From Vibrio vulnificus CMCP6 (GTDB lineage Bacteria; Pseudomonadota; Gammaproteobacteria; Enterobacterales; Vibrionaceae), in NCBI RefSeq assembly GCF_000039765.1, contig NC_004460.2:1620001-1652000 (forward strand): a DNA stretch of 32,000 bases. The letters are read 5' to 3'. A program made the position numbers and the translations under genes. The notes below the pieces were generated by a model. It was given only the letters and a program-made list of their open reading frames with translations, did not search any database and was not told where the DNA came from. Shown in pieces: positions 2,680 through 32,000 of the stretch. How positions within the stretch are numbered: the first letter of the stretch is position 1; every line of letters begins with the position of its first letter.

Positions 2680-2703
2680 TCGGCCCTAGCCAAAAATAAC
2701 GAA

Positions 2704-2728
2704 AGCGCTCCGAAAGGGGCGCTTTTTG
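2704..2728. terminator. Hairpin terminator after tdh (possibly bidirectional)
   Basis: AGCGCTCC-GAAA-GGGGCGCT is an 8-bp stem with one U-G pair and a GNRA-type loop. It is followed by TTTTTG on the plus strand and preceded by an A-rich run that serves the minus strand. Confidence 0.75.
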
Positions 2729-2750
2729 TATTTCATAAAGGCGAAAACCA

Positions 2751-3218
2751 TCAGTTGACGTCGCAGAAAGCAAAATGCGATTGATGCTTGTCCACTTGTG
2801 ACGCACTGTTTTTGGCTGCCTGAACGAAGGAGATGGCAGCGCTAAATTGTGCACCTACTCCTGGCCAGTAATATTCATCATTGTCAGAACACAGGGTAAT
2901 GATGACGGGAGTGGTATCTAAAGTCACATCCTCATCTTGTTCAACATAGAGCGTATATCGAATCCGTTTATGTTGTTTGCCGCGAAGTGTCTCAATAACT
3001 TCAGCTTCATAAACAAACTGGGTTATAGAGCCAGTATCAGATTCGTTGATAACGTCGACATTAGTGTGTCTAACAACCGCTGAATAAGGTGTGTTGACAA
3101 TGGCTTCTATTAAAAATGGTGCTTGTGTCTCGAACACTTCGCTATCTGTGTCACTTTTAGCTGAAGTGCTACTCGCCATCAAAACAACCAATATAAGAAG
3201 GTTCATATTACTTTTCAT
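2751..3218 (-). CDS. Hypothetical secreted protein
   Basis: The likely start is MKSNMNLLILVVLMASSTSA (Sec-type signal peptide) rather than the track's start at 3248. No family is recognisable by eye. The gene is AT-rich. Confidence 0.55.
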   Translation of the reverse strand: MKSNMNLLILVVLMASSTSAKSDTDSEVFETQAPFLIEAIVNTPYSAVVRHTNVDVINESDTGSITQFVYEAEVIETLRGKQHKRIRYTLYVEQDEDVTLDTTPVIITLCSDNDEYYWPGVGAQFSAAISFVQAAKNSASQVDKHQSHFAFCDVN

Positions 3219-3273
3219 ATGGTTATATAGAGTCTTGTGCTTAAGCAATGAGTTAAATCTAAGTTTTTAAGCA

Positions 3274-3759
3274 TCAATGCTGACCGCCGATACCTATGTA
3301 TAAGTTGATGGTTTCATCTAATATGGCATTTTCGTAACGTTCCTTTGTTCCTTGCACCTCTAAAGTATCAAATTTAGCTTCAATCATTCCGTCGAGTTCA
3401 TTGCTGTTTTTGAACCATGTTGGGAAGAAATCGGTATTAATGACCAAATTATGCTTGTTCTTTATTTCGTTGATTATTGTATTGGTTCTCGATTTGACCT
3501 TATTGAACGATAAAGAACTTGAAGAATAGTGGATGTCGTAGTTGTTCATCAGACAATATTGATTCTCGAAGATCAGTTGGTCGCCATCTGAAAAAATGTA
3601 GTAGTACCTCAATATGTTTTCACCACTTTCTGTATCTATACCTTCAAAAACGTAGGAGACCGAAGAGCTTTCAACCAAAGGCATGATTGGTGATTTATCA
3701 CAAGAGTATGAATAAAAGGAAAATGTTGATAAAAATATTGTGATTAAAAAGTGCCGCAT
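3274..3759 (-). CDS. Hypothetical secreted protein or lipoprotein
   Basis: The likely start is MRHFLITIFLSTFSFYSYSC, a hydrophobic leader ending in Cys (weak lipobox). No family is recognisable. The gene is AT-rich. Confidence 0.5.
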   Translation of the reverse strand: MRHFLITIFLSTFSFYSYSCDKSPIMPLVESSSVSYVFEGIDTESGENILRYYYIFSDGDQLIFENQYCLMNNYDIHYSSSSLSFNKVKSRTNTIINEIKNKHNLVINTDFFPTWFKNSNELDGMIEAKFDTLEVQGTKERYENAILDETINLYIGIGGQH

Positions 3760-3961
3760 GTTTATTTCTGACAAGCTAGTAGGTTTAGGGACATTTTTAA
3801 ACAAGGATTGCGTATTTCAATAGTGATAGGAGTATTTCTGCCGTTCATTAGGCAGATATCAAATTACTAGAAAGGATTAACTTCATTTTTATAAGTTATC
3901 CCTGTCCGAATTGGATCTTTAACGGTGTTGATTGCACATTGTTCAATGTCACGCGATTTCG

Positions 3962-4030
3962 AGCTAACCAGATAGTGAGTCAGCGTTTATGGGGCTCACT
4001 CACTTACCTCTGGCTTGCAACTCTAAGTCG
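3962..4030 (-). repeat. Short attC-like imperfect palindrome (candidate decayed attC of the OGFr-like cassette)
   Basis: CTAAC-CCAGATAGTGAGTCAGC...GGCTCACTCACTTACCTCTGG forms a bulged inverted repeat about 50 nt 3' of the 4076-4585 ORF. The minus-strand core GTTAGCT fits GTTRRRY with one mismatch. The opposite core is not recognisable. Confidence 0.3.
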
Positions 4031-4075
4031 CTAGGGTATACAAGCCAACTTGATCAGATGCTTACTTCTTGCTTT

Positions 4076-4585
4076 CTATTTTTCTCTCTCTTCTAGAGCA
4101 TAGCACCAATACTGCTGCGTTTTCTCCGAGACACTGCCCACTTGCTTGGTGGCAGAGAGGAGGAAATCACACAGGTTGCGTGCAATGCGCTCATTACCCA
4201 ATAGATACAAGCTGCGAATTGCTCGCGTTAATCGTAGTTGGTTGTGGTCGTGGTGTTTAAGCCAGACATGATTAGTAGGGGTGAGCGGCAGTAACGATGA
4301 GATTTCATCGCCATTTCTCACCATGCCCCAAAATTCGAGCATAAGATCGAGAGCCTTCAAATGTGCGGTGCGAAGGGCTAAAGAGTTGGCAAATTGCTCT
4401 CTGTCTTGCGCTGTTACAAGAGGAGCGTGTTGATTGAACTTGGTTCCCTCGTCAATCGGAAACAGCACTTGTATGTATTTGTGGTCGTGCTCCAACCAAA
4501 AGTGGTTGTAAGCCAGCAACTGTTCTATGTTGCGACCGAACTTGTCTGGCGCTTCGCCAGAGATGAAACGAGCAATCTCACTCAT
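4076..4585 (-). CDS. Opioid-growth-factor-receptor (OGFr) N-terminal-domain-like protein
   Basis: 169 aa. The block WLEHDHKYIQVLFPIDEGTKFNQHAPL...ALDLMLEFWG...HNQLRLTRAIRSLYLLG parallels the human OGFR conserved region as I recall it (LEWNHSYIQWLFPLRE...AKPL...YELMLGFYG...HNNLRITRILKSLGELG). Confidence 0.7.
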   Translation of the reverse strand: MSEIARFISGEAPDKFGRNIEQLLAYNHFWLEHDHKYIQVLFPIDEGTKFNQHAPLVTAQDREQFANSLALRTAHLKALDLMLEFWGMVRNGDEISSLLPLTPTNHVWLKHHDHNQLRLTRAIRSLYLLGNERIARNLCDFLLSATKQVGSVSEKTQQYWCYALEEREK

Positions 4586-4661
4586 TGTAAATCCTGTAAA
4601 ACTCTGTAGTGGGGGAATGTGTTTTGAGTGAAGCCTTCACAACGCCACAGTGAAGCGGTGG

Positions 4662-4925
4662 TTAACGTTTTTCACACTCTTTTTTATCTTTGAATAAGTT
4701 TGTAAGTGCCGTTGCTTCCGTCCGCTCAAGATCTTGGTATGCGTCAAAAGCATCGCCATTTTTGTAGCCTAATAAGCATAAACCGCCTTGAATGATCAAG
4801 GTAAAAAGCGACACAACAAGCACCAAAAACGGGATCACACCAAACATATCAATCGAAATCAAAATGGAAGACAAGACGATAGCAATGGCAGAAATCACGA
4901 CTTTAACTTTGCTAGTAAAAACCAT
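4662..4925 (-). CDS. Small two-pass membrane protein, unknown function
   Basis: 87 aa with two hydrophobic spans (VVISAIAIVLSSILISI and VIPFLVLVVSLFTLIIQGGLCLL) and a charged C-terminal tail. Confidence 0.5.
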   Translation of the reverse strand: MVFTSKVKVVISAIAIVLSSILISIDMFGVIPFLVLVVSLFTLIIQGGLCLLGYKNGDAFDAYQDLERTEATALTNLFKDKKECEKR

Positions 4926-5009
4926 AACGCACTCTAATATTGGGAATTTTAGCCATTTTATAAGTTCTCAGTTGCGCATAGTGATTGCTTGGTCACATGA
5001 AAGCGACAG

Positions 5010-5113
5010 AGACCACGCCGCAGGGCGGGTATGTAGTGATGTGGGGGGCCGATTTGAGTTCTAAGCCCAACGCATGTGGGGATGCGTTGGGGATTCTTAA
5101 ATGCTTTGTTAAC
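5010..5113 (-). repeat. attC, same family but shortened, with a mutated R' core
   Basis: The right part, CCCAACGCAT-GTGGGG-ATGCGTTGGGGATTCTTAAATGCTTTGTTAAC, aligns with the family motif CCCAACG..GCGTTGGGAATCACTCTTAAACAG.TTGTTA. The left part, ACCACGCCGCAGGGCGGGT, aligns with CTAACGCCGCATTAAGGTGT, but TAAC is replaced by CCAC. Confidence 0.6.
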
Positions 5114-5162
5114 TGAGCGCGTCACTATTCACGCTCACGAATGGCAAGAGCGCATGATCATA

Positions 5163-5990
5163 TTATTTTTCTTCAACAAGTCGAAAACCTACATATGGCT
5201 CTCGAATATCAATATGCCTTGCCCAGTAGGTATGAGGAACTAAATCTTGTCCCGGTAAAAACCACCCTCCGCCGACAAACAAGTAAACTGCACATTCTTG
5301 ACTTCCTTTTTCTCGTTTAGGTAAACATTGCTCTACCCACTCTCCTACATTTCCTAGCATGTCAAAAACGCCAAACCGATTTGGAGGAAAAGAGCCTACT
5401 TGTGCGGTTTGTTTATTACTCCAAGCTGTGCCACAGTTATTGCAGTTAGCGTTGCTGGCCTTAGGTGGGTTTCCCCAATCATAACTCTCCGACATACCTG
5501 CTCTCGCAACATACTCCCACTCAGCACGCGTAGGTAAGCGGTATTTTTTACCAAACTTGGCATTAGCCCAGTCTATATAACCTTGCACATCAGAATAACT
5601 TACATTGATAACGGGACGAGTTCCTCTACCCCAACCCATATCATCAGGGTATTGACAGACTTCCCCTTCTACACATGGCGCTTTTATAGGACGATTTTTA
5701 TATGCCCAGTCAGATTTAGGCTTTTGACAGCCTCCATCAGAAACACAGGCGTCCCATTGTTCCATTGTGACTTCAAATTTACCGATGCGAAAAGAAGGAA
5801 CTGCAATATTGCGTAATATAAACTCTGGTTCGCTGCAAATTCTCGCATCATCAGGACATGTATAAAGATCAACGTTACCCTTTGGAACATCTATCATTTC
5901 TAAAATAGTAAGTTGACTCTCTGCATACACTTTCAAAGAGATACAGCTGATACTTACAATCCAAAAAAACAGACTAACAACTCTTACCAC
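5163..5990 (-). CDS. Secreted formylglycine-generating-enzyme (FGE/SUMF1) family protein
   Basis: 275 aa from a GTG start with an AGAGGG Shine-Dalgarno. The signal peptide is VVSLFFWIVSISCISLKVYA. FGE-sulfatase domain motifs are present: FRIGKFEVT..QW, YRLPTRAEWEYVARAG, FGVFDMLGNVGEWV and GFRLV. Confidence 0.8.
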   Translation of the reverse strand: MVRVVSLFFWIVSISCISLKVYAESQLTILEMIDVPKGNVDLYTCPDDARICSEPEFILRNIAVPSFRIGKFEVTMEQWDACVSDGGCQKPKSDWAYKNRPIKAPCVEGEVCQYPDDMGWGRGTRPVINVSYSDVQGYIDWANAKFGKKYRLPTRAEWEYVARAGMSESYDWGNPPKASNANCNNCGTAWSNKQTAQVGSFPPNRFGVFDMLGNVGEWVEQCLPKREKGSQECAVYLFVGGGWFLPGQDLVPHTYWARHIDIREPYVGFRLVEEK

Positions 5991-6023
5991 ATTACCCTCT
6001 CTTAAATAACGACCAATTGCCAG

Positions 6024-6149
6024 TTAACACCGCGTTAAGGTGTGGGTGGCGCCACCACGAAACCTAACCAGACCACCGCAAATACAAAACCCAACGATGG
6101 AATGAAAAATGCCACGCGTTGGGAATCACTTTTAAATTGTTTGTTAGTT
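6024..6149 (-). repeat. attC recombination site (VCR-like, ~125 bp)
   Basis: Plus-strand TTAAC...GTTAG with imperfect internal dyads. It aligns along its whole length with the copies at 6782 and 8124. Its reverse complement resembles the V. cholerae VCR layout as I recall it (TAACAA..TTAAGAG..CAACGC....GCGTTAG). Confidence 0.85.
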
Positions 6150-6205
6150 GCCCATCTCAAAGCCTAGTGCTAACATTTGTACACACACCAACAAAGGAAT
6201 ACATC

Positions 6206-6490
6206 ATGGACACTAGAATTCAATTTCGTGTTGATGAAGAAACAAAACGCCTAGCTCAACAAATGGCTGAGAGCCAAGGTCGCACTCTTAGTGACGCATG
6301 CCGTGAACTTACTGAGCAACTCGCTGAACAACAAAGAAAAACATTGTCTCACGATGCATGGCTAACTGAACAAGTAAATCTAGCATTTGAGAAGTTTGAC
6401 TCAGGAAAATCCGTTTTCATTGAGCACCAAACTGCTAAATCTCGAATGGAAGAGCGCAAAGCCAGAATCCGTAATCGAGGTAAGCAATGA
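6206..6490 (+). CDS. RelB/DinJ-family (ribbon-helix-helix) antitoxin
   Basis: 94 aa from ATG 6206 with an AAGGAA Shine-Dalgarno. The track's start at 6119 would run into the attC. The N-terminus TRIQFRVDEETKRLAQQMAESQGRTLSDACRE is DinJ/RelB-like. The stop overlaps the toxin start (ATGA). Confidence 0.8.
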   Translation: MDTRIQFRVDEETKRLAQQMAESQGRTLSDACRELTEQLAEQQRKTLSHDAWLTEQVNLAFEKFDSGKSVFIEHQTAKSRMEERKARIRNRGKQ

Positions 6491-6765
6491 TTTTATGGGA
6501 AGAAGAGTCACTTAATGATCGTGAAAAGATCTTCGAGTTTCTCTATGACTTCAACCCTGATGTGCCAGAAAAAACTGACAACCTCATTGAAGCAAAAGTA
6601 GAAAACTTGCTTGAACAACCTTTAATGGGTGTACAACGAGATAGCATCCTCGGTCGATTACTCATTATTCCTGAGATTTCGATGGTTATCTCTTACTGGG
6701 TCGAGGGCGATATCATCCGAGTTATGCGTGTCCTCCACCAGAAACAAAAATTCCCTACGGATTGA
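6487..6765 (+). CDS. ParE/RelE-superfamily toxin
   Basis: 92 aa. ILWEEESLNDREKIFEFLYD...GRLLIIPE..MVISYWVEGDIIRVMRVLHQKQKFP is the typical RelE/ParE fold signature. The gene is coupled by a 4-nt overlap to the upstream antitoxin. Confidence 0.85.
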   Translation: MILWEEESLNDREKIFEFLYDFNPDVPEKTDNLIEAKVENLLEQPLMGVQRDSILGRLLIIPEISMVISYWVEGDIIRVMRVLHQKQKFPTD

Positions 6766-6781
6766 TTGCTTCCTCTGGGGA

Positions 6782-6906
6782 ATTAACGCCCTGTTAAGGG
6801 GTGAGCAACGCAATACCTAAGCCGCCGCATACCACCTTAAACACTAAAACCAACGCATAGTAAAAATGCCACGCATTGCGAATCACTCTTAAACAGTTTG
6901 TTAGAA
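6782..6906 (-). repeat. attC recombination site (VCR-like, ~125 bp)
   Basis: ATTAACGCCCTGTTAAGGGGTGAGCAACGC....GAATCACTCTTAAACAGTTTGTTAGAA. It is homologous to 6024-6149 and 8124-8251 and abuts the stop of the 6915 ORF. Confidence 0.85.
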
Positions 6907-6914
6907 TATTGCCT

Positions 6915-7458
6915 TTAGGGAGCATTCATACCTGACACTTTAAGATGGCCTACATATATGAGCTTGGAGTTATTTGCTAGATCTTTCGGTGTTGTTTGGC
7001 TTGAAAACCACTCCAATGGTACTCCTGCCTTTTTATAAGAAAATGCTACTAGCTCAGAACAATAAAAGTCGCTCTCTGGTGAAATTAGGTTAGCCATTGT
7101 TGGTAGCATTCCAAGTGCTGCTCTACCAGCACCACTCGAACCAATAGCACCTGAAAGATCGTATTGTTTACCAAGTTGTTTTCTGGCATAGGTCATAATC
7201 TTATTTTTGAGCTTCAGATAGGCCAGGGTATCTATATACGACTGTATAAAGATCGCCTTTCATAACATCGACTAATTTGACTTTGACTACTTCGGGATCA
7301 ATAGCTTCAATAATATGCTCACCACCCACATAAAGTCGAGCATGACTGTAATTTGAAATTGTTGCCAATTTTACGACCTTTGAAACTGCTTCATTTGTTG
7401 TCGATAGAATGACATCACCTTTTTGGAGTTGCCCAAGTGTGATAACTTTAGTTGACAT
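6915..7458 (-). pseudogene. Permuted papain-like (YiiX/C92, NlpC/P60-superfamily-like) hydrolase, split by a frameshift
   Basis: The 7201-7458 ORF carries the His half (GDVILS..SNYSHARLYVG) and the 6915-7196 ORF carries the Cys half (DFYCSELVAFSY). The downstream frame stays open upstream as ..LKNKIMTYARKQLGK. Adding one A to the A5 run (plus-strand T5 at 7204-7208) would fuse both halves into ..EAQKNKIMTYARKQ.. Confidence 0.65.
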
Positions 7459-7467
7459 TTTATTCCC

Positions 7468-7968
7468 TTACTTAGATGTATACGAGATCCATGTAGCATT
7501 GACATTATCCAACGAGACATTAGACCTAATATCAATTGTGGTAAATTTTAGGCCCATTAAATCTATGTCGCTTTCAGGAAAGAACAATATACCCGTAGAT
7601 TGTCCCTTTGGCCGAAATTGGTATTTTTTTCCCTCATTAGAGGTAGCTACTATTTCGATTTCAATTTCAAAATTTGGCCATTTAGACGATACAAATACAT
7701 CCCTATCATACGCTGAATCTGATGCAATCATTTCTGTTGAAAAAGTTAAATTCTCTGGTTCACTTCCGTCAAAAATCAACCTTATCATTTGATTTCGATT
7801 CAAAGCAGTAACATCAACATTAAATTTTGACCACCCCACAGATTTAATTTTCTTTGCGCTAAACATGTCTACAATGTGCGGATTGCGGAAAAACTGTGAA
7901 AATAGATGATTGTCACACCCTAGAAGAATAAATGGGAAACAGATAAAAATAATTAATTTAAACCTCAC
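7468..7968 (-). CDS. Lipoprotein, unknown function
   Basis: 166 aa from a GTG start with a TGGAG Shine-Dalgarno. Lipobox: MRFKLIIFICFPFILLGC. The stop lies 9 nt before the hydrolase ATG and overlaps its Shine-Dalgarno, so the two genes share one cassette. Confidence 0.65.
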   Translation of the reverse strand: MRFKLIIFICFPFILLGCDNHLFSQFFRNPHIVDMFSAKKIKSVGWSKFNVDVTALNRNQMIRLIFDGSEPENLTFSTEMIASDSAYDRDVFVSSKWPNFEIEIEIVATSNEGKKYQFRPKGQSTGILFFPESDIDLMGLKFTTIDIRSNVSLDNVNATWISYTSK

Positions 7969-8123
7969 GCCAACTCCAAAAATTACGATTTAATAGCAGT
8001 TATTTTTATATGGTCAGTGAGTTTTTCAATATAAAAGCATACTTTTTCAACAAATCTCGACTAACGTCAAAAAATCATCAGCGAGAATTTTTAGTTTTAT
8101 AAGCAACGAATGTTAGTGAAATA

Positions 8124-8251
8124 TTCTAACGCCGCATTAAGGTGTGAGCAACGCTACCACGAAACCTAACCATACCACCATAAACACAAAACCCAACGAT
8201 GGAACGAAAAATGCCAAGCGTTGGGAATCACTCTTAAACAGATTGTTATGT
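8124..8251 (-). repeat. attC recombination site (VCR-like, ~128 bp)
   Basis: TTCTAACGCCGCATTAAGGTGTGAGCAACGC....GGGAATCACTCTTAAACAGATTGTTATGT. The minus-strand R' core GTTAGAA fits GTTRRRY. The site starts 3 nt after the stop of the 8255-9901 ORF. Confidence 0.85.
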
Positions 8252-8254
8252 CAC

Positions 8255-9901
8255 TTAGTTTACAAAAACTACTTTGTCTTCAGTTTCAATATCTAGGGCT
8301 CTATATAACATCTTGTGTACCTTTAAATGACTAGACCTCTTAACTTCACCCTTACTAACACTAGACTGATCTATGTAAGACCATAGGAATGTATCCAAAG
8401 AACTGACCTTAACACCAACAGCGCCAACACGATATAAACACTGAAGTAACGCATATAGCACATCAGATTCTTTTACAGCCTTACCTTCGAAGTAAGAATG
8501 TACGATTTTCACGCAAGGATCAGTGTTTTTTGTATCACTCAACGACATGACAACATCATTTAAACGTTCTTGGTTTATAGAAGAACGAGAAAATGTTGCA
8601 GGTAACCCTCTGAGTAGCTCAGCAGTCTCTTCAAAAGATGGATACATTTCACCCCATTCTTCTTTTAAGGACTTTAAACGTTTCTCTGAATAGTTGGCTT
8701 CAGCAGCTATTAGCGCCCTCCAAGATACACGGTCTCGTTCTGAAGCAATATTAAAGGTTTCATTTACAAACTGGAGAACATCCCGTGGTCTTCTGAGCGT
8801 ACGTTCTAATATGAAGTCCATAGCGGTTTGTCCGCCGCCTTTCTTTGGTTTAGGGAATATATGCTCTAACTTAACTGTGTCTTTGGTATATTGGCTTTTA
8901 AAGACCTCGTTTATCCTCAATTCAACCAGTTTAGTTAATTCTTCGTTACTCCACTTGAGTTCAAGCATGTAAGATTCGTATTTTTCTTCTTGAAACCCAG
9001 AGTCTCTAGTTTGATCATAAACCAAATCTAATAGGTCTTTTCGTAATGCAGCTATAATTTTAACCGTTTCGATCTTACGGAATGACTTTACTTCTTCGAT
9101 TAAAGCTCTAATAAATCGACACCTTGTAGAAGTATTGGCCCAATTTTCATCCAACTGGTCAATTACGATATAAAATTTCTTTTGTGTATCATCAAAGGAA
9201 TACTGTGCGAGCAATTCCAGAACTTCATTTAATTTTTTTATTTGTAAGCCATTAACAACCTGACTTGCTCGTTGCTTAATCTCCGTTCTTTCTTGCTCTG
9301 ATAGTTTTTCGACACCATCGAGACTTAAAGACACACCCGAATATTTTGCTCCAATTGAAGCTTTAGTATCATTTTCTAGCTTCGACGTGATTTCGCGAAG
9401 GTGTTCATCTGTATCTAACCAGAACTTATCCCCCCACTCGTTGAAGTACTCTATAGCTTTTTTCTTTGCCTTATCTCTTCGAAGCCAAGAAAAAATGCCA
9501 TCAGTAAAACGCTGTCCATCCTGCTCATTTTTAATGTCGTATCTGAGTTTTAGTATTTCTACAACAAGTAGATGACGCCATAGCAGCTTGTAAAATAAAT
9601 CTAATTTTATATCTAAAGCATCGAAAAACTTGATTATATCCGAGTACTCCAAAAATCGGACTGAAATATCATTAGGGTCTAGCCTCGCACAGTGGTCTGT
9701 ACTTGTTTCAATTTTATGAATTAAAGCGCTTTTCCCTGAGCCAGTTCTCCCAAGAATAACTGCTGCGGGGTTACTGACGTCCAATAATTCGTCAAGATCT
9801 CCCTTATCTACAAAACACTTGTCTAGTAAAGAACTATCTGTTTCAGCATCTAAAGCTCCGACCTTCAAGTTTCGTGTAATTTTTATTCCTGAATCACTCA
9901 T
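8255..9901 (-). CDS. P-loop NTPase (STAND/AAA-like core) with an uncharacterised C-terminal region
   Basis: 548 aa with an AGGAAGG Shine-Dalgarno 5-6 nt before the ATG. Walker A is GRTGSGKSA (aa 51-59, nt 9725-9751). Walker B is FYIVIDQLDE (nt 9146-9175). Downstream elements are KIIAALR, LELKWSNEEL and TLRRPRDVLQF. Only about 45 aa precede the P-loop. No nuclease, protease or TIR-type motif is visible by eye. Confidence 0.8.
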   Translation of the reverse strand: MSDSGIKITRNLKVGALDAETDSSLLDKCFVDKGDLDELLDVSNPAAVILGRTGSGKSALIHKIETSTDHCARLDPNDISVRFLEYSDIIKFFDALDIKLDLFYKLLWRHLLVVEILKLRYDIKNEQDGQRFTDGIFSWLRRDKAKKKAIEYFNEWGDKFWLDTDEHLREITSKLENDTKASIGAKYSGVSLSLDGVEKLSEQERTEIKQRASQVVNGLQIKKLNEVLELLAQYSFDDTQKKFYIVIDQLDENWANTSTRCRFIRALIEEVKSFRKIETVKIIAALRKDLLDLVYDQTRDSGFQEEKYESYMLELKWSNEELTKLVELRINEVFKSQYTKDTVKLEHIFPKPKKGGGQTAMDFILERTLRRPRDVLQFVNETFNIASERDRVSWRALIAAEANYSEKRLKSLKEEWGEMYPSFEETAELLRGLPATFSRSSINQERLNDVVMSLSDTKNTDPCVKIVHSYFEGKAVKESDVLYALLQCLYRVGAVGVKVSSLDTFLWSYIDQSSVSKGEVKRSSHLKVHKMLYRALDIETEDKVVFVN

Positions 9902-10016
9902 CTAAGCCTTCCTATGTGCACACTCACTTAAATATACACCGAGACTCATATTCATTCTGTGAGCAAGTTATTGAGTTGAATAAGTGACATAACTGCTGCT
10001 AGCAATCACTGTGTTT

Positions 10017-10121
10017 ATCTAACCTTTGTAATTGTGTTTTAGGCGTCACCATGAATGCCAAATTAATGTGCAAATACTGGCATAGCACTCAATAAAGTCA
10101 TTACTCTTTAAGTGGTTATAC
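10017..10121 (-). repeat. Candidate fifth, divergent attC bounding the NTPase cassette
   Basis: ATCTAAC (minus-strand GTTAGAT, a perfect GTTRRRY) ... CATTACTCTTTAAGTGGTTAT. The right arm resembles the family motif CACTCTTAAACAG.TTGTTAT. There is an internal dyad ATGCCA-N17-TGGCAT. The centre is not homologous to the other copies. Confidence 0.4.
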
Positions 10122-10198
10122 TCATGCTTTTATCGCAAGTTAATGATTTGATATATATAGAAAAAACTTATAAAGAACTGAAGGTTTAGACCGTCTTG

Positions 10199-10747
10199 TA
10201 ATGAGCGCTGACACTATGGTTTTCTCAACAAACTTCCAGCGCACTCTGCGCAATGGATTCTGCATCACGCTCGTGCCCCGCTATCCAGAATGACGAGCGT
10301 AGAGAGCGGTGTTTGGGGGGACTTTAAGCGGCAGTTGTCTGTGAAGAGGCCGATAAACACACAGAGCCTACCATCTGTCATCCCAGCAAGCCTAGGCGCG
10401 ACTAGGGATCCATTCATCGACGAGCGCTAGAGCGGCGGTTTGCTCACTGAACTTTCAGCGCACTCTGCGGAATGGATTCTGCATCACGCTCGTGCCTCGC
10501 TGTCCAGAATGACGAGTTTAAAGAGTGATGTTTGGGAAAGGGCTTTAAGCGGCAGTTGTCTGTGAAGAGGCCGATAAACACACAGAAACCACCGCCTGTC
10601 ATTCCAGCAAGCCTAAGCGCGACTAGGATCCATTCATCGACGAGCGTTAGAGCTGTGGTTTTCTCACCGAACTTTCAGCGCACTCTGCGCAATGGATTCT
10701 GAATCACGCTCGTTCCTCGCTATCCAGAATGACGAGCTTAAAGAGTA
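10199..10747. repeat. Noncoding tandem repeat, unit ~219-220 bp, ~2.5 copies
   Basis: The landmark CAGCGCACTCTGCG recurs at 10237, 10456 and 10676. Copies differ by scattered substitutions. No ORF of 60 aa or more is present on either strand. Confidence 0.9.
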
Positions 10748-12467: not shown

Positions 12468-13598
12468 TTAATGATCAATCATGTCCGCAAGAATCATTGC
12501 TGCGTGGGTTTCTACGACACCAGCGTTGAAGCCGTACATGTGGCCATATTTGCTCGCCAGAGCCGTTTGTACGTTGCGGGTGATCTCTTCTTGCCAACGT
12601 TTAAACCAAACGAAATGGTTCCCATCGCTGAGCATTGGCGTGTAAGGCACCACTTCAAGTTGTTTGCCCACTTCCGCTCTTACATCGGCGATGTATTGCA
12701 GTAGATCTTTCACATCCTGTTTTGAGCCGATGTTGCCGTGGCCACCATTAATGAAGTCCCATTGCCAGCCAAGGTGTTTGCCGAGCAAGTTTTTGAGATC
12801 GTCTTCATAGCCGTGGAAGTGCTCTGCGCCAGCAAAGTTGTAAAACGGCAATTGGTCAGGGTTAATCATGTCAGCGAAATGCAGTACGCGATCACTTGGA
12901 ATCAGAATCATGGTGTTATCTGGGGTATGGCCAGAGCCTGCTGGCGCGATCAAATGCACTTTGACGGAACCAAACTTCACCACCTTCGGTTTTCTCAGGT
13001 CGTAGACATCAGTTGGTGCTGGCACTTTCGTTGTTTTTACGCCGTTTTCATTGGTTTCTGCATGCTGGGCGATTTTGTTGGCCACCGCTTGGCTGGCAAT
13101 CACGCGTACTTTGTTCACGCTCGGATAGTTTTGCTTGATCAGTTCGACCAATTGGTTGCCACCGCCAACATGATCAAGGTGGTAGTGTGAGTACATAATG
13201 GTGGTAATCGGCTTGTTGGTGATGGATTGCACGCCTTTGAAAAGCGCATCGATGCGGCCATCGCCTAATGGGTCAATCAGCATCACCGAATCTTCGTTGA
13301 CGATTACCGTGGAATTGTAATAGTTGACGCCAATCCAATAGGTGTTTTTGCCCAGCTTTTGCACGGTGGCTTTGCTGTCGTCAAACTGGCGCTCATAGAG
13401 ATTGTTGATTTTCTGGCCCACTTTAAGCGCTTGAGTGGCGGATGGTTCGACTTCGCTAGGCAGCGTGCTTTGCACTGTTTCGCCAGGGAAAACAATCGCA
13501 CGTTGTTGATCGTGGCTGTGGTTATGGTTTGCAGCGCCAGCATTGAAAGACAGCAGTGCGGCAGTGATTGGGGCTAAAGCAAAGGTGAATCGTTTCAT
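12468..13598 (-). CDS. Secreted MBL-fold metallo-hydrolase
   Basis: The likely start MKRFTFALAPITAALLSFNAGAA (signal peptide) is preceded by a GGAGAG Shine-Dalgarno. The HxHxDH motif appears as YSHYHLDHVGG, with later His/Asp ligands (GSGHTPDN, GGHG). Confidence 0.8.
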   Translation of the reverse strand: MKRFTFALAPITAALLSFNAGAANHNHSHDQQRAIVFPGETVQSTLPSEVEPSATQALKVGQKINNLYERQFDDSKATVQKLGKNTYWIGVNYYNSTVIVNEDSVMLIDPLGDGRIDALFKGVQSITNKPITTIMYSHYHLDHVGGGNQLVELIKQNYPSVNKVRVIASQAVANKIAQHAETNENGVKTTKVPAPTDVYDLRKPKVVKFGSVKVHLIAPAGSGHTPDNTMILIPSDRVLHFADMINPDQLPFYNFAGAEHFHGYEDDLKNLLGKHLGWQWDFINGGHGNIGSKQDVKDLLQYIADVRAEVGKQLEVVPYTPMLSDGNHFVWFKRWQEEITRNVQTALASKYGHMYGFNAGVVETHAAMILADMIDH

Positions 13599-13710
13599 TT
13601 TTTCTCTCCTCATCAGGTGAGGAAAAAGATAAATGAGAATCACATATATCAAAAATGCATGATTGTTATAGTATGTATATCACTTACGCACGAAATTATT
13701 AGGTGTTTTG

Positions 13711-26545: not shown

Positions 26546-29500
26546 ATGACAATGAAACCGGTACTTTATATCGAAATTGATGGCGTAGTTTGGAAAATTA
26601 TGCCGGACGGTCAGTGGGTTGCCGTACAAGCCGATGAGGTGGTTGACCCAACGGTGAAGTACGTTAAAGAAACACCGCTACCCATCAATGATAGTGATGC
26701 CGTTAACATTGACGATCCTATTGACGCAGAGCCAGTATACCAACGCCCTACAACGCCAAACGATGCGCCATCTTCGGATCAGGACCTTTCTTCTGAAAGC
26801 GCGAGCTTATTCGGTTTCATTCGCCCTGAACTGCGTGAGGTGTTGGCTCAATCCGGTTATGACACGCTGCCGACAGATTATGAAAACACGCCTGAGCGTG
26901 AAAGCCCAGACGCGCAATTTTATCTCTTGGATGACGACGCCACGATCACGGTGACGATTGCCGACGGTGGCGATGGTTACGAAAATGCGCAGGAAGTGCC
27001 GAGCATTGCGATTTTCGGTACCACGACAGATGTTGAAGATGGCCGCCTCGTTCAGTTGGTTTTGTCCGATGCTTCCGGTCAACAGCAAGTGTTTAGCGCC
27101 ACGGTTTTTCAAGGTGAGTACCGCGTTGAAGGCATTGATGCCAGTGGGTTTGATGAAGGCACCTTGACTGTCACCGCAACCATTACCGATGAACTCGACA
27201 ACTTTATTCAAGCCTCTGACACCACAATCAAAGATACCTTAGCGGAGATCACCACCGAGTTTGATGGCCGAGGCGACGAGTTCTTTAACCGTTTTGAAAT
27301 CTCTTCCTCGGGGCTGACAGGCACTGTTAGCCATGTTGAAGATGGGCAGCGCATCGATATCGAAGTGATTGATAGCTTGGGCCAAACCTTACGTTTTACC
27401 ACTACGGTCAATGGTGGAACCTGGTCGATCAATGAAGATTTAAGCAGCCTTGCGGAAGGCCCACTGACGATTCATGCTCAAACCATCGACATAGCAGGCA
27501 ATCCTGCCAGTGCAAGCGATACCATCGTCAAAGATACGCAAGCTTCCATTACGGTAAGCATTGACTCTGGCGATGATGAGTTGGTGAGCGATGCTGAGAG
27601 TGGCAACGTTCGTGTCTACGGCGAGGTGGCCAATGTTGAAGATGGACAAGCGATTCGAGTTGTCCTAGTAGACTCGGCAGGCCATGCCCAGTGGTTTATT
27701 ACCTCGGTGTCGGGCAATCAATGGTCGATCGATAATATCGATGTTTCTCAGTTTGCCGATGGTGATTTTCGCGTGTTGGCGGTGACGAAAGATGTTGCGG
27801 GTAACCCCGCTGTTGCGACCGATAGCGCAGGGCTAGATACCACTTTTCCTACCATCGATATTGATACCTTAACTGGTCTGCAGATCATCGATTTTAAATC
27901 CGGTGCAGACACGGCCTTGCAAGGCACCACCACGGGCGCAGAAGCTGGGCAGCCGGTTTTAGTCACCATCACCGATGGGGTGAATACGGTTGAAGCGCTC
28001 ACCCAAGTTGATGCGGCTGGCAATTGGTCGTTCGACAGCATTGATCTTTCGACGTTGGATGCCAATTTGGAATGGCAATTGAACGCAACGGTGACGGATC
28101 TCGCTGGCAACCGCGCAAGCGACGATATGCCTAGTCTGATTGTGCCTGATGTGGTCAGCGTCAATGAAGATATTGCCGTTGTTCTTGGCAGCAGTGACGC
28201 GCTTTCGCCAATCAATATTGATAATGCCGATTTCACTTTCATCGACGAGCAAAGCAGCTTGTCTTCGCTGACCTCACTTGGTCAGTCCATCTCTGTGGTC
28301 ATCTCTGCCGATGGTCTTTCTTTGTCGGCGGTGCGAGCCGATGGTCAAGTGGTGTTGTCGGCCAGCATTCTCAATAATCAAGAAGTCAAAATTCAACTCT
28401 TTTTGCCAGTCGATCACGGTGACTCCCAACGCTTACTGACGGAGCTGATGATTCAAGGTACGCAAACCGACAGTGATGGTACAACCGAAACGGTGGTTGC
28501 GCCGGTGGCGGTGGTGATTGGCGATGCGATCGTTTTTCCTCCACTGGTTGACAGCGCGGCGATCACCGTCACCATCGACGACGGTGGCGATGGCTACGAG
28601 AATGCGCAAGAAGTCCCCGCCGTCGTCATTCATGGCACCACAACCGATGTGGAAAATCTCCGATTAGTAACGATCACTGTGACCGATGTGGATGGCAATA
28701 CGCTGACATTCACCACTCGAGTAGAAAACAACCGTTACCAAATCTCACCAGTTGATTTGACGGGCTTAGCCGAAGGGCCGTTGAGCGTCGAGGCTCATAT
28801 CGACGATGTCTATGGTAAGACCATTCAAGCCACCGATAGCACCATCAAAGATACCTTGGCAGACATCACCGCGGAGTTTGAAGGCAATGGCGATGAGTTT
28901 CTCAATCAGTTTGAAGTGAGCAAAACCGTACTGACAGGCCGAGTCACCGAGGTAGAAGATGGTCAGCGCATTGATATCGAGGTGATCGATGCTCTAGGGA
29001 ACACCTTAACGTTCTCGACGCTTGTGGCGGGCAATACGTGGACAATCGAAGCCGATCTTTCATCGCTGGTGGATGGCGAATTGACGCTCAATACGCAGAC
29101 CATCGATGTTGCCGGTAATGTGACCACCGCAAGTGACACCATTGTTAAAGATACGCAAGCGGCGATTACCATCGCCATCGACAGTGGCGAGGATGAGGCA
29201 CTGAATCCGACCGAACTGAGTGCTGTGACGCTCTCTGGCGTCGTCAGCCATGTTGAAGATGGCCAAGCGGTGCAAGTGGTGGTGACGGATACCTCTGGTG
29301 CGAAGTTAGTGTTCACTACCGTTGTCGTCTCGGGTGCGTGGTCACTCAAAGATCTCGATCTTTCGTCTCTTACGGATGGCGAAATCCGTGCCACCGCCAG
29401 TACCATCGATGTGGCGGGTAACCCTGCCACAGCAGAAGATACAGCGATCGTGGATACCACCGCGCCCACGATCGACATTGATACCTTAACTGGCCTTGAG

Positions 29501-32000
29501 ATTGTTCAATTTAAGCAAGGCACAGAAACTGCACTGCAAGGCAGTACCACTGGGGCAGAACCCGGACAGCCAGTCGTGGTGACCATCAGCGACGGCACTC
29601 AGACCATTTCGGTGACAACAACCGTGGATGCGGCTGGCGTGTGGTCGTTTTCCTCCATCGATGTCAGTGCGCTGGATGCTGCGAAAAGTTGGAGCTTAAC
29701 CGCCACGGTGACCGATGCTGCAGGCAATAGCGCCACCGATGAGACGCCAACGCTGGATATTCCAGACACCGTGGCGTTGTGGGAAGACTTAGCCGTGATT
29801 CTCGACAGCAGCGAGGCGCTGTCGGAGATCAATATTGAAAACGCCCAGTTTACTTTTCACGGCACGCAGTCCGATCTCGCCGCACTGACCTCCCTTGGTC
29901 AATCCGTGTCAGTGGTGATTTCAACCGATGGCCTATCCTTGAGCCTTGTTCGTGGCGATGGGGCAACGGTATTGACCGCTGCAATTGAAACCAATAGCCA
30001 AGTTAAGTTGTCCCTCTTTTTGCCGGTTGATCATGGCGAAGCACAACGCTTGCTGACGCAAATTTTGTTGGAAGGTACCCAAACGGATGCCGACGGCACC
30101 ACGGAAACGGTGATTGCACCGTTGCCGATTGTGATTGAGGACGCGATAGTCTTCCCGCCGTTGGTGGACAGTGCGTCGTTGACGGTCACTATCGACGATG
30201 GCGGCGATGGCTACGAAAATGCTCTCGAAGTACCTGGCACGCGGATTCACGGCAACACGGTGGATGTTCAGGATCTGCGTTTAGTCACCATTACCGTGAC
30301 CGATTCGTTGGGTGCGACACTCACTTTCACCACCCGAGTGGAGAACAACCAATATCAGATTTTCCTTGTCGATTTGAGCTCGCTTGCCGAAGGGCCGCTC
30401 ACGGTCGAGGCAGAAATTCATGACGCCTACGGCAAAGTCATCACCGCCAACGACACCACCATCAAAGACACATTGGCTGAAATTGATGTTGCCTTTGATG
30501 GTCAAGGGGATGCATTTTTAAATCAGTTTGAAGTGGCCACCACCACGCTCAATGGCCACGTGGCCAACGTGGAAGATGGACAAACCATCAACATTGAAAT
30601 CATAGATGGACAAGGCGGACGACTGACGTTTACCACTGTGGTATCGGGCGACCAATGGTCTTTGGATGTTGATTTGAGCACGTTAAGTGATGGTGAACTG
30701 ACGGTACACGCTCAAACCATTGATATCGCGGGCAACCCTACCACCTCACACAACACCATAGTGAAAGATACTCAAGCGTCCATTACGGTTGAGATTGACA
30801 GTGGTGATGACGACTTATTGAATCCAGCAGAGTTGACTTCGGTAAAAGTCAGCGGTTTGGTTAGTCATATCGAAGATGGCCAAAGCGTGAATGTGGTGCT
30901 GTCGGACTCGGCAGGCAACACCATGACAGTGCAAACCACGATTGTGGGTGGGGCATGGGCAATCGATAATCTCGATCTTTCAGGCTTTGTGGATGGCGAG
31001 ATATCTGCCACCGTCTCGACCGTCGATGTGGCAGGCAACCCCGCAACGGCAACGGATAGTGCGACGGTAGATACCACGGCTCCAACCATTGATATTGATA
31101 CGTTCGATGGTCTCAACATTCTGCAGTTTAAATTAGGGACCAATACCGCGTTGCAAGGCACCACAACGGGAGCAGAAGCTGGCCAACCAGTGGTGGTCAC
31201 CATCAGCGATGGCACTCAAAGTATTCGTGTTACCACGAGCGTGGACGCCGCGGGGAGCTGGCAATTTGCAACCATTGATGTAAGCGCCTTGAACAACCGC
31301 GCGACATGGACACTCACCGCCACGGTGACCGATGCCGCAGGAAACAGTGCGGTGGATGACATGCCCACGCTCACTTTCCCTGATGTGGTGACCGTGTATG
31401 AAGATTTGACGGTGGCGATTGGCAGCAGCGGCGCAACATCCGATATCAATGTGGAACAAGCGCAATTCCGATTCCATGAGGTTCAAACGGATCTAGAAAG
31501 TCTGACTTCGTTTGGTCAAAGCATTACGAGCACGCTTTCAGCCGATGGGCTGACCTTAACCGCCACCCGTGCCGATGGTGAAATTTTACTGACGGCGCAT
31601 ATTGCCTCCAATGCGCAAGTTCAGTTGCAACTCTTCCTGCCGGTGGACCACGGCGATGCACAGCGCCTACTCACGGACCTGATGATTGCGGGAACGCAAA
31701 CCGATGCCGATGGCACCACTGAAACGGTGCTAACGCCACTGCCCATCGTGATTGAAGACGCGATTGTCTTTCCTCCGTTGGTTGATAGCGCAGAGATCAC
31801 CGTGGTGATTGACGATGGTGGCGATGGCTACGAAAACCAGTTTGAAGTCCCCGCAGTGCGTATTCACGGTAACACAGTGGATGTTGAGGATTTACGCCTC
31901 GTTACCATTACCGTCACGGATGTGGATGGAAAGGTGCTGACCTTTACCACCCGCGTTTCCGATAACGCCTATCAAGTGAGTCCGGTTGATCTCAGCTCAT
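26546..32000 (+). CDS. Giant repetitive adhesin (Bap/LapA/RTX-adhesin-like, Ig-like domain arrays), 5' part; the ORF runs off the window end
   Basis: The frame containing ATG 26546 (MTMKPVLYIEIDGVVWKIMPDGQ..) has no stop through 32000 (more than 1818 codons). It is absent from the track only because it is not closed. It contains repeated ~100-aa beta-rich modules ending in D(I/V)AGN..T..DT.(V/I)(K/V)DT, which is typical of bacterial Ig-like adhesin domains. Confidence 0.9.
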   Translation, partial: MTMKPVLYIEIDGVVWKIMPDGQWVAVQADEVVDPTVKYVKETPLPINDSDAVNIDDPIDAEPVYQRPTTPNDAPSSDQDLSSESASLFGFIRPELREVLAQSGYDTLPTDYENTPERESPDAQFYLLDDDATITVTIADGGDGYENAQEVPSIAIFGTTTDVEDGRLVQLVLSDASGQQQVFSATVFQGEYRVEGIDASGFDEGTLTVTATITDELDNFIQASDTTIKDTLAEITTEFDGRGDEFFNRFEISSSGLTGTVSHVEDGQRIDIEVIDSLGQTLRFTTTVNGGTWSINEDLSSLAEGPLTIHAQTIDIAGNPASASDTIVKDTQASITVSIDSGDDELVSDAESGNVRVYGEVANVEDGQAIRVVLVDSAGHAQWFITSVSGNQWSIDNIDVSQFADGDFRVLAVTKDVAGNPAVATDSAGLDTTFPTIDIDTLTGLQIIDFKSGADTALQGTTTGAEAGQPVLVTITDGVNTVEALTQVDAAGNWSFDSIDLSTLDANLEWQLNATVTDLAGNRASDDMPSLIVPDVVSVNEDIAVVLGSSDALSPINIDNADFTFIDEQSSLSSLTSLGQSISVVISADGLSLSAVRADGQVVLSASILNNQEVKIQLFLPVDHGDSQRLLTELMIQGTQTDSDGTTETVVAPVAVVIGDAIVFPPLVDSAAITVTIDDGGDGYENAQEVPAVVIHGTTTDVENLRLVTITVTDVDGNTLTFTTRVENNRYQISPVDLTGLAEGPLSVEAHIDDVYGKTIQATDSTIKDTLADITAEFEGNGDEFLNQFEVSKTVLTGRVTEVEDGQRIDIEVIDALGNTLTFSTLVAGNTWTIEADLSSLVDGELTLNTQTIDVAGNVTTASDTIVKDTQAAITIAIDSGEDEALNPTELSAVTLSGVVSHVEDGQAVQVVVTDTSGAKLVFTTVVVSGAWSLKDLDLSSLTDGEIRATASTIDVAGNPATAEDTAIVDTTAPTIDIDTLTGLEIVQFKQGTETALQGSTTGAEPGQPVVVTISDGTQTISVTTTVDAAGVWSFSSIDVSALDAAKSWSLTATVTDAAGNSATDETPTLDIPDTVALWEDLAVILDSSEALSEINIENAQFTFHGTQSDLAALTSLGQSVSVVISTDGLSLSLVRGDGATVLTAAIETNSQVKLSLFLPVDHGEAQRLLTQILLEGTQTDADGTTETVIAPLPIVIEDAIVFPPLVDSASLTVTIDDGGDGYENALEVPGTRIHGNTVDVQDLRLVTITVTDSLGATLTFTTRVENNQYQIFLVDLSSLAEGPLTVEAEIHDAYGKVITANDTTIKDTLAEIDVAFDGQGDAFLNQFEVATTTLNGHVANVEDGQTINIEIIDGQGGRLTFTTVVSGDQWSLDVDLSTLSDGELTVHAQTIDIAGNPTTSHNTIVKDTQASITVEIDSGDDDLLNPAELTSVKVSGLVSHIEDGQSVNVVLSDSAGNTMTVQTTIVGGAWAIDNLDLSGFVDGEISATVSTVDVAGNPATATDSATVDTTAPTIDIDTFDGLNILQFKLGTNTALQGTTTGAEAGQPVVVTISDGTQSIRVTTSVDAAGSWQFATIDVSALNNRATWTLTATVTDAAGNSAVDDMPTLTFPDVVTVYEDLTVAIGSSGATSDINVEQAQFRFHEVQTDLESLTSFGQSITSTLSADGLTLTATRADGEILLTAHIASNAQVQLQLFLPVDHGDAQRLLTDLMIAGTQTDADGTTETVLTPLPIVIEDAIVFPPLVDSAEITVVIDDGGDGYENQFEVPAVRIHGNTVDVEDLRLVTITVTDVDGKVLTFTTRVSDNAYQVSPVDLSS
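26945..32000 (+). repeat. In-frame tandem super-repeat of exactly 1617 bp (539 codons): 3 full units plus the start of a 4th
   Basis: The landmark codons D-G-G-D-G-Y-E-N have their first Gly codon at 26966, 28583, 30200 and 31817, giving spacing of 1617, 1617 and 1617. Units 2 and 3 align by eye without any indel despite many substitutions. Confidence 0.95.

Follow-up and report, generated by a model that had tools for sequence, protein, structure and literature searches.

A cassette-borne ATPase gene of the Sll1717 family

The stretch of DNA considered here, a window of 32,000 nucleotides (nt) from Vibrio vulnificus CMCP6, carries on its minus strand a one-gene cassette that encodes a P-loop ATPase of 548 amino acids (aa), a member of the Sll1717 family and a candidate for a single-gene immunity protein. 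The features of this cassette are listed below.

8255..9901, minus strand: open reading frame (ORF) for the 548-aa Sll1717-family P-loop ATPase, with the stop codon at 8255-8257 (ORF list, NF047389, AF2 model)
8130..9992, minus strand: gene cassette between the recombination junctions, from TT at 9992-9991 to G at 8130 (1,863 bp)
8121..8261, minus strand: attC of the cassette, Vibrio-repeat type, directly 3' of the ORF, with R' core GTTAGAA at 8124-8130 (nhmmer E 4.6e-45)
9987..9993, minus strand: true 5' core GTTATGT, crossover between G9993 and T9992
9902..9992, minus strand: leader of 91 nt with the Shine-Dalgarno sequence AGGAAGG at 9907-9913 (sequence, promoter scan)
10017..10023, minus strand: GTTAGAT, proposed earlier as the 5' core, lying 24-30 nt outside the conserved cassette and not a boundary

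By exact-sequence look-up, the ORF corresponds to protein accession AAO08364.1 of V. vulnificus CMCP6, and it is far beyond a chance ORF because more than 1,900 homologous clusters exist. The initial annotation, made from the DNA letters, had placed both the ORF and the attC directly 3' of it correctly. It also took GTTAGAT at 10017-10023 as the 5' core and gave the gene a leader of about 115 nt; these two points had to be revised. In blastn comparisons, homology to other gene-carrying contigs (L001, L005 and L101-L103) runs from window position 9993 to 8127 and then ends, and the start of homology lies exactly at G9993/TT in four independent arrays (the slash marks the junction). A canonical attC abuts the 5' junction in these arrays (...GGGCG/TTATGTCAC; ...GCG/TTATGTCAC in L001 and L101), and the attC upstream of the cassette in L001, a contig of V. 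parahaemolyticus, and in L101 and L102, both from other V. vulnificus strains, ends in ...GCG/TTATGTCACTTATTC. The cassette has identical ends and different flanks in L001, L101-L103 and L005, with the breakpoints at G/TT. The start of homology at G9993/TT, together with the abutting attC seen elsewhere, therefore places the 5' crossover between G9993 and T9992 and the cassette at 9992-8130, and shortens the leader to 91 nt. The strong Shine-Dalgarno sequence noticed at the outset remains, 5 nt upstream of the ATG.

The same cassette with its attC is present in a super-integron array of V. parahaemolyticus, where 17 attC sites lie within 10.8 kb. Marinomonas balearica carries it too, and the protein there is 91% identical. 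The same attC follows the ATPase gene in all Vibrio copies and in Marinomonas, while the neighbours of the cassette differ among V. parahaemolyticus, V. vulnificus and Marinomonas. Therefore, the cassette is real and mobile, a unit carried as cargo. Its composition is foreign, with a GC content of 37.8% versus 45-50% in the flanking chromosome.

The protein is a full-length member of the NCBIfam family NF047389, "P-loop ATPase, Sll1717 family" (220.4 bits, E 4.9e-65, against a curated cutoff of 75 bits); residues 15-536 match profile positions 2-454 of 454. PHROG 13260, of unknown function, is also matched. Homologues are named in RefSeq by the Sll1717 family name, which carries no function. 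The family is large, comprising 1,915 clusters at 50% identity with E <= 1e-3, of which 553 have E <= 1e-30, and nearly all full-length matches among the top 150 measure 530-585 aa. Species-level genomes with a relative belong to the Gamma-, Beta- and Alphaproteobacteria, Acidobacteriota, Nitrospirota, Chloroflexota, Planctomycetota, Bacteroidota, Chlorobiota, Kiritimatiellota and Cyanobacteria.

Among Pfam families, only nSTAND1 (PF20703) exceeded its gathering cutoff (28.9 bits versus 27.1), as a partial match to profile positions 95-197 of 379; AAA_16, Zeta_toxin, NACHT and nSTAND3 all stayed sub-threshold. Sequence searches of the PDB, with the protein itself and with a profile of 64 homologues, returned matches at the level of the P-loop and no sequence relative. 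The initial annotation had seen no nuclease, TIR, protease or repeat module, and this holds: no effector domain was found in Pfam, PADLOC, NCBIfam or by Foldseek.

The motifs and domains of the protein, with conservation taken from an alignment of the 64 homologues, are as follows.

9767..9901, minus strand: N-terminal 45 residues, with the pre-Walker-A motif G15-x3-A19-E20-x-D22...L26...F30 (invariant or nearly invariant columns)
9725..9751, minus strand: Walker A, GRTGSGKSA, residues 51-59; G51, G54, G56 and K57 invariant
9188..9661, minus strand: insertion consisting wholly of helices, about 158 residues (81-238), which separates the Walker A strand from the Walker B strand (AF2 secondary structure, conservation)
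9146..9172, minus strand: Walker B, YIVIDQLDE, residues 244-252; D248 and D251 invariant; part of the stretch that nSTAND1 matches
8780..8791, minus strand: RPRD motif, residues 371-374; R371, P372 and R373 invariant; aligned by hhalign to SPRE of DS-41, a defence protein compared below
8258..8740, minus strand: C-terminal domain, residues 388-548 (conservation, AF2, Foldseek)

Invariant residues are also found outside the Walker and RPRD motifs, namely G15, A19, D22, W108, R287, K307, W317, R329, N380, S405, E415 and W416. Within the helical insertion a motif LLWRHxxxxE is conserved, in which W108 is the invariant residue and H110 and E115 are nearly invariant. The Walker A motif with K57, the Walker B motif, LKWSNEEL and RRPRD had all been recognized at the outset and are confirmed. 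Judged from the invariance of K57, D248, D251 and the arginines R287, R329, R371 and R373, the ATPase site looks intact and catalytically competent, and RPRD is probably a sensor-2 or lid arginine motif. Proteins of the STAND class combine a Walker A motif and a Walker B motif of the hhhhD-x-x-DE type with an N-terminal effector and a C-terminal repeat sensor (TPR, WD40 or LRR). Both motifs are present here, as GRTGSGKSA and IVIDQLDE, with K57, D248 and D251 invariant.

An AF2 model built on the 64-sequence alignment reached a pLDDT of 85.9 and a pTM of 0.84. It displays a P-loop core broken by the helical insertion, a helical lid carrying RPRD, and the C-terminal domain. Foldseek searches of the PDB with this model, one of the checks suggested at the outset, gave distant AAA+/STAND-like matches only (E 3e-4 to 1e-2, TM 0.2-0.48): the archaeal ATPases Sso1545 and PAB2304, FtsH, BrxC of BREX, RdrA of RADAR, ORC/Cdc6 and MalT. 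The Foldseek probability of an AAA+ match was 0.98-1.0 for Sso1545, PAB2304, FtsH, RdrA, BrxC and ORC/Cdc6, and the TM-scores are low because of the insertion and the extra domain. Among the viral structures of BFVD, only generic AAA+ and clamp-loader matches were retrieved. The predicted fold is thus AAA+/STAND-like with a helical insertion in the NTPase domain, in agreement with the early STAND/NACHT-style reading of the motifs; the partial match to nSTAND1, just above its cutoff, is marginal.

Conservation is lowest in the C-terminal domain (1.74 bits, versus 2.2-2.7 elsewhere). Modelled alone, this domain is predicted to be compact, of mixed helix and strand, with a pLDDT of 95. No significant PDB match was obtained for it by Foldseek (best E = 1.7), and a few winged-helix proteins appeared amid the noise. 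Its variability hints at a role as a sensor or in specificity, and its end may be winged-helix-like.

Genomic contexts of the family and a proposed role in defence

Homologues are found on many kinds of mobile elements. In Pantoea floridensis (locus L011), the homologue lies between gpA (replication) and the portal gene of a P2-like prophage and adjoins an AAA_15/21 ATPase; this interval we take to be the tin/old defence hotspot of P2-like prophages (Rousset et al. 2022). The same Pantoea prophage carries a reverse transcriptase (RVT_1) and an STM3845-family gene among its tail genes (L011 18340-20225), which looks like a second defence-type insertion. In Serratia, the homologue is inserted between traC and traU of an integrative and conjugative element (ICE); in P. 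syringae, it lies in an integrase/AlpA/DUF927 island; in Shewanella algae, it stands beside HipA, RtcB/RF-1 and HNH genes; and in Cronobacter, it is a lone insertion between housekeeping genes. A homologue is present in 186 plasmid records. Some of these are IncFIB plasmids of Klebsiella and E. coli, on which WP_000026497.1 is located between repB and vapBC, near an AAA-ATPase/UvrD pair. In E. coli, 30 of the 5,426 complete genomes have a homologue, and it is always plasmid-borne. Additionally, a distant copy (22.6% identity) occurs in two Klebsiella phage records.

Across 80 loci, immediate neighbours included HsdR (4 loci), a Mrr-type nuclease (3) and a CAP12/Pycsar-type TIR protein (3, all Pseudomonas). 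When 148 immediate neighbours were scanned with PADLOC, 233 models were matched at E <= 1e-5, among them mad3, mad8, PDC-S35, PbeA, PsyrT, AriA and NsnB, as well as TIR effectors, type IV restriction enzymes, BrxH, DrmD and DpdF. The settings of the homologues are integron arrays, a P2-like prophage, an ICE, an integrase island and plasmids, and genes of the restriction, TIR, MADS or PARIS-like kind are often close by. It is a solitary family of patchy distribution that travels on mobile elements in the company of defence genes.

This solitary habit bears on one alternative, according to which the ATPase only senses or switches and needs a second component that acts with it, for example a TIR effector, which is located elsewhere or missing, so that the copy in the cassette would be incomplete or dependent on a host factor. 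In three Pseudomonas species (L024-L026), a 295-aa CAP12/Pycsar-type TIR protein is encoded directly upstream, on the same strand and about 36 nt away, at approximately 9050-9980, and could be an optional effector partner. The AAA_15/21 ATPase that directly follows the homologue in L011 and the lack of an effector domain in the 548-aa protein itself fit the same explanation. However, the TIR neighbour is confined to 3 of the 80 loci, and no recurrent partner family emerged, the best cluster being present in 9 of the 80 and not adjacent. Also, the gene travels alone in the one-gene cassette, and likewise in the ICE, on IncFIB plasmids and in Cronobacter, and the length of the protein is uniform across about 1,900 clusters. 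We consider a missing partner unlikely.

A second alternative is that the gene is cargo of mobile elements with a non-immune function, either an addiction or toxin-like P-loop enzyme resembling zeta-toxin kinases, or a factor for the maintenance or competition of the element. It draws on a weak Zeta_toxin match and on database records named 'zeta toxin family protein', on the position between repB and vapBC on IncFIB plasmids, and on the richness of integron arrays in toxin-antitoxin cassettes, one of which (ParE/RelB) lies two cassettes away in this window. But the Zeta_toxin match (PF06414) is below its cutoff (20.5 bits versus 22.3) and covers residues 43-90 only, that is, the P-loop, which makes the 'zeta toxin' label a P-loop-only annotation. 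Moreover, no antitoxin-like gene is adjacent to the ATPase gene in the cassette or in the 80 loci, and the predicted fold is AAA+/STAND-like rather than that of a zeta kinase. A toxin or maintenance role of this kind therefore appears quite improbable.

Many other database records name homologues 'DNA repair protein' or 'ATPase involved in DNA repair', and UvrB is an immediate neighbour in 3 of the 80 loci. Nevertheless, no match to RecF, RecN, SbcC, Rad50 or any other repair family was found in Pfam, NCBIfam or the PDB, the family has since been renamed neutrally by NCBI, and its distribution is patchy and linked to mobile elements instead of following core-genome synteny. The 'DNA repair' label can be regarded as an unsupported legacy annotation, the housekeeping role being effectively refuted by the distribution, and a repair ATPase is a very improbable explanation.

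The family has also been flagged computationally. In the prediction tables of DefensePredictor, WP_000026497.1 has a mean log-odds of 14.71 and WP_261735718.1, a 553-aa homologue of Pseudomonas iridis at locus L024 (68% identity), has 15.42; both are labelled "Predicted novel defense gene" (PMC13092281). The strict cutoff of this method is a log-odds of 4, and the validation rate, 45% over 94 tested units, rises with the score (r = 0.95; PMC13092281). For both homologues, the only similarity reported is remote, to Shango SngB and PifA, each at about 27% coverage (PMC13092281). In an accession search of the supplement files, the two proteins occur in the prediction tables and not in the table of tested systems (PMC13092281).

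We therefore propose, at a probability of roughly 55%, that the stand-alone AAA+/STAND-like Sll1717 ATPase is a single-gene anti-phage (or anti-mobile-element) immunity protein carried as integron-cassette cargo. The initial annotation had suggested a defence or abortive-infection module of an undescribed type. The defence candidacy is sustained by the contexts and by log-odds of about 15, but for abortive infection specifically there is no evidence. As for the type, the family is not categorically new, since it is already named in NCBIfam and PHROG and its homologues are listed by DefensePredictor; the 548-aa protein does, on the other hand, lie outside every validated defence family testable here.

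How such a protein might work can be sketched from the STAND/NLR-like and AAA+ defence ATPases, taken as analogues. A phage-derived trigger, either protein or nucleic acid, would be recognized by the variable C-terminal domain, and its binding would make the ATPase assemble into an ATP-dependent oligomer. Infection would then be blocked by this oligomer and not by a fused enzyme, perhaps by binding or remodelling phage DNA or replication and packaging complexes, or through a toxic activity of the helical insertion.

Several points weigh against assigning the gene to immunity. No experimental work on members of the family came to light, and in the absence of a detectable effector domain the killing or blocking step is pure conjecture. 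PADLOC-DB v2.0.0, whose models the initial annotation had proposed to search, gave no significant match for the protein or for the 64 homologues: the best values were E 0.0023 (PDC-M28C) and 0.013 (mad8) for the protein, and 2.4e-6 and 8e-7 across the homologues, in the P-loop or Walker B region only. Genomic context is among the inputs of DefensePredictor, which is therefore not independent of the argument from context, and just 45% of its tested predictions were validated (PMC13092281). Some loci have housekeeping neighbours (RNR in 7 of 80, besides the UvrB cases), and the analysis of neighbours, made with no matched background set, therefore provides qualitative support only. Also, a simple promoter scan detected no convincing sigma-70-like promoter upstream of the gene in the cassette; as no Pc or intI is nearby either, expression in this strain is unproven.

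A more far-reaching proposal is possible but doubtful. It takes the Sll1717 family for a one-protein immune system that is complete in itself, spread over more than 10 bacterial phyla and devoid of a recognizable effector. An ATP-driven oligomer, relying on a C-terminal sensor fold not seen before and on the helical domain embedded in the NTPase, would directly disable a replication or packaging intermediate of phages or plasmids; integrons, P2 hotspots, ICEs and plasmids would traffic the module. If the immune role is true, a large family with no function assigned so far (at least 553 clusters at 50% identity) found in the plasmids, ICEs, prophages and integrons of pathogens would receive a role. 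It would also add another case in which a bare ATPase, lacking any fused effector, confers immunity by a poorly understood mechanism. Integrons have been viewed as defence libraries, and attC clusters that lack an integrase and lie apart from the main super-integron would then come under the same view. The gain is limited, since new defence systems are now discovered by dozens and the family is on a published prediction list.

The attC array and its chromosomal setting

The array to which the cassette belongs spans approximately 2700-9993 of the window. Two further attC sites in it are homologous to that of the ATPase cassette.

6780..6916, minus strand: next attC, closing the lipoprotein / split C92-amidase cassette (nhmmer E 1.1e-40)
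6017..6159, minus strand: third attC, closing the inverted ParE/RelB-like toxin-antitoxin cassette (nhmmer E 2.2e-45; Pfam ParE_toxin, RelB)

The attC of the ATPase cassette is 82-86% identical to these two, all on the minus strand, and it also matches 17 sites in L001. No integron integrase (intI) was found in the 32-kb window by a domain scan of ORFs of at least 90 aa, and a complete integron is thus not present there; the ATPase cassette is not beside attI or intI and the layout of the window is not that of a classical integron. The initial annotation was accordingly right to see a mobile cassette but not in the integron setting implied. The array is a small, strain-variable attC cluster with no integrase, located between blc (lipocalin) and tdh/kbl in V. 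vulnificus. Its content changes with the strain: L099 and L100 match the window, and L101 and L102 have extra cassettes upstream of the ATPase, which encode a 195-aa protein, a 278-aa protein plus DUF1848, and a second 166-aa gene product.

The segment 9990-10745, composed of three 220-bp repeats and about 195 nt, has a homologue ahead of another cassette in L101 and L102, with 92.8% identity in L101. This homology stops at the same ...AGCAGCAG/TT point, and the junction therefore behaves as a recombination site. Its use by different cassettes in different strains suggests insertion at a site that is neither attC nor attI.

Several other elements of the array and its surroundings were observed. 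The ParE toxin and RelB-like antitoxin pair fills one cassette at 6119-6765 on the plus strand, opposite to the other cassette genes. A YaeF/YiiX-type C92 amidase appears to be split between two adjacent minus-strand ORFs, at 6915-7196 and 7201-7458 (85 aa and 93 aa). The split is common to all V. vulnificus strains examined (L099-L102), and is therefore an old pseudogene or a real two-ORF arrangement. A degenerate or truncated attC at 5054-5125 on the minus strand (nhmmer E 0.009) follows an FGE-sulfatase-like cassette gene, and a short hairpin with GTTAAC...GCGTTG ends, at 4640-4680 on the minus strand, comes after an ORF for a small membrane protein. Towards its distal end the array is therefore either eroded or built of different attC types.

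Between blc and the first cassette lie three tandem units of about 220 bp (10187-10746; 74-92% identical, 52% GC), and such units are far more numerous inside the same array of other strains (L101 823-2132 and 3156-3684). These repeats were considered as a structured RNA or as empty cassettes and rejected, with folding z values of only -1.86 and +1.06, no match to the attC profile of this array (E <= 10) and none to Rfam, which recovered no RNA family in the window as a whole. A metallo-beta-lactamase-fold protein is encoded adjoining the array, at 12468-13652 on the minus strand (L099 2304-3434). The precomputed Pfam annotation of this gene in L099 includes Anti-Pycsar_Apyc1 (PF23023), and our own Pfam scan gave only Lactamase_B families at E <= 0.001. 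Farther away, from 26928 to 32000 on the plus strand and past the end of the window, runs a huge ORF of 1,617-bp (539-aa) repeats, 62-77% identical, with the Big_13 Ig-like domain, which is probably a giant adhesin.

Comparison with known defence systems

In the literature searched, Sll1717 is not mentioned, and WP_000026497 is likewise absent from the paper texts searched. Single-gene systems were left out of the domain-centric screen published in NAR in 2026, and a cassette-hunter preprint of the same year, which covered Vibrio cassettes including the V. vulnificus super-integron, recovered from the latter a NUDIX hydrolase and a small membrane protein, and not the ATPase gene. The known Vibrio integron-cassette systems (Cernunnos, Belenos, Sirona, Ogmios, VP1817 and others) resemble the present one in being small attC-bounded units within Vibrio arrays, but none of those named, in the available parts of their descriptions, is an ATPase of the Sll1717 kind.

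The best whole-model structural matches were RdrA of RADAR, BrxC of BREX, Sso1545 and PAB2304, with E 3e-4 to 1e-3 and TM 0.3-0.48, whereas the sequence identity to them is only 11-13%. RdrA and BrxC moreover act with partners, the RdrB deaminase and the other BREX proteins, respectively, and no such partners are encoded here.

There is also a likeness to the STAND/NLR-like defence NTPases, such as Avs and bNACHT, which share the hhhhDxLDE Walker B, an acidic motif before Walker A, a helical lid with an arginine motif and a more variable C-terminal region. Unlike them, the 548-aa protein has no N-terminal effector, only 45 residues preceding the P-loop, and no C-terminal TPR, WD40 or LRR repeats.

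Among validated systems, comparison was also made with DS-41 (working name AAA2, WP_033812887.1, 502 aa), a single-protein defence system of E. coli (PMC13092281). Homology over most of the protein was not detected (BLASTP E 0.12, with the first 399 residues of DS-41 compared), and DS-41 differs in being 46 residues shorter and in forming a separate family. Aligned with the Sll1717 family profile, however, it gave an hhalign probability of 92.7% (E 4.4e-7) over 132 columns, in the part from Walker B to the lid only. By its sequence, DS-41 is best described as a remote relative and not as a member of the family. Both systems consist of one gene, and both proteins show an N-terminal AE-x-E/D motif (DS-41 carries TAENEPD, analogous to the pre-Walker-A motif of the 548-aa protein), GxxGxGKSA and a long helical insertion, followed in the same order by hhhhD-x-LDE, W-N/S-x-EL and (R/S)PR(D/E).

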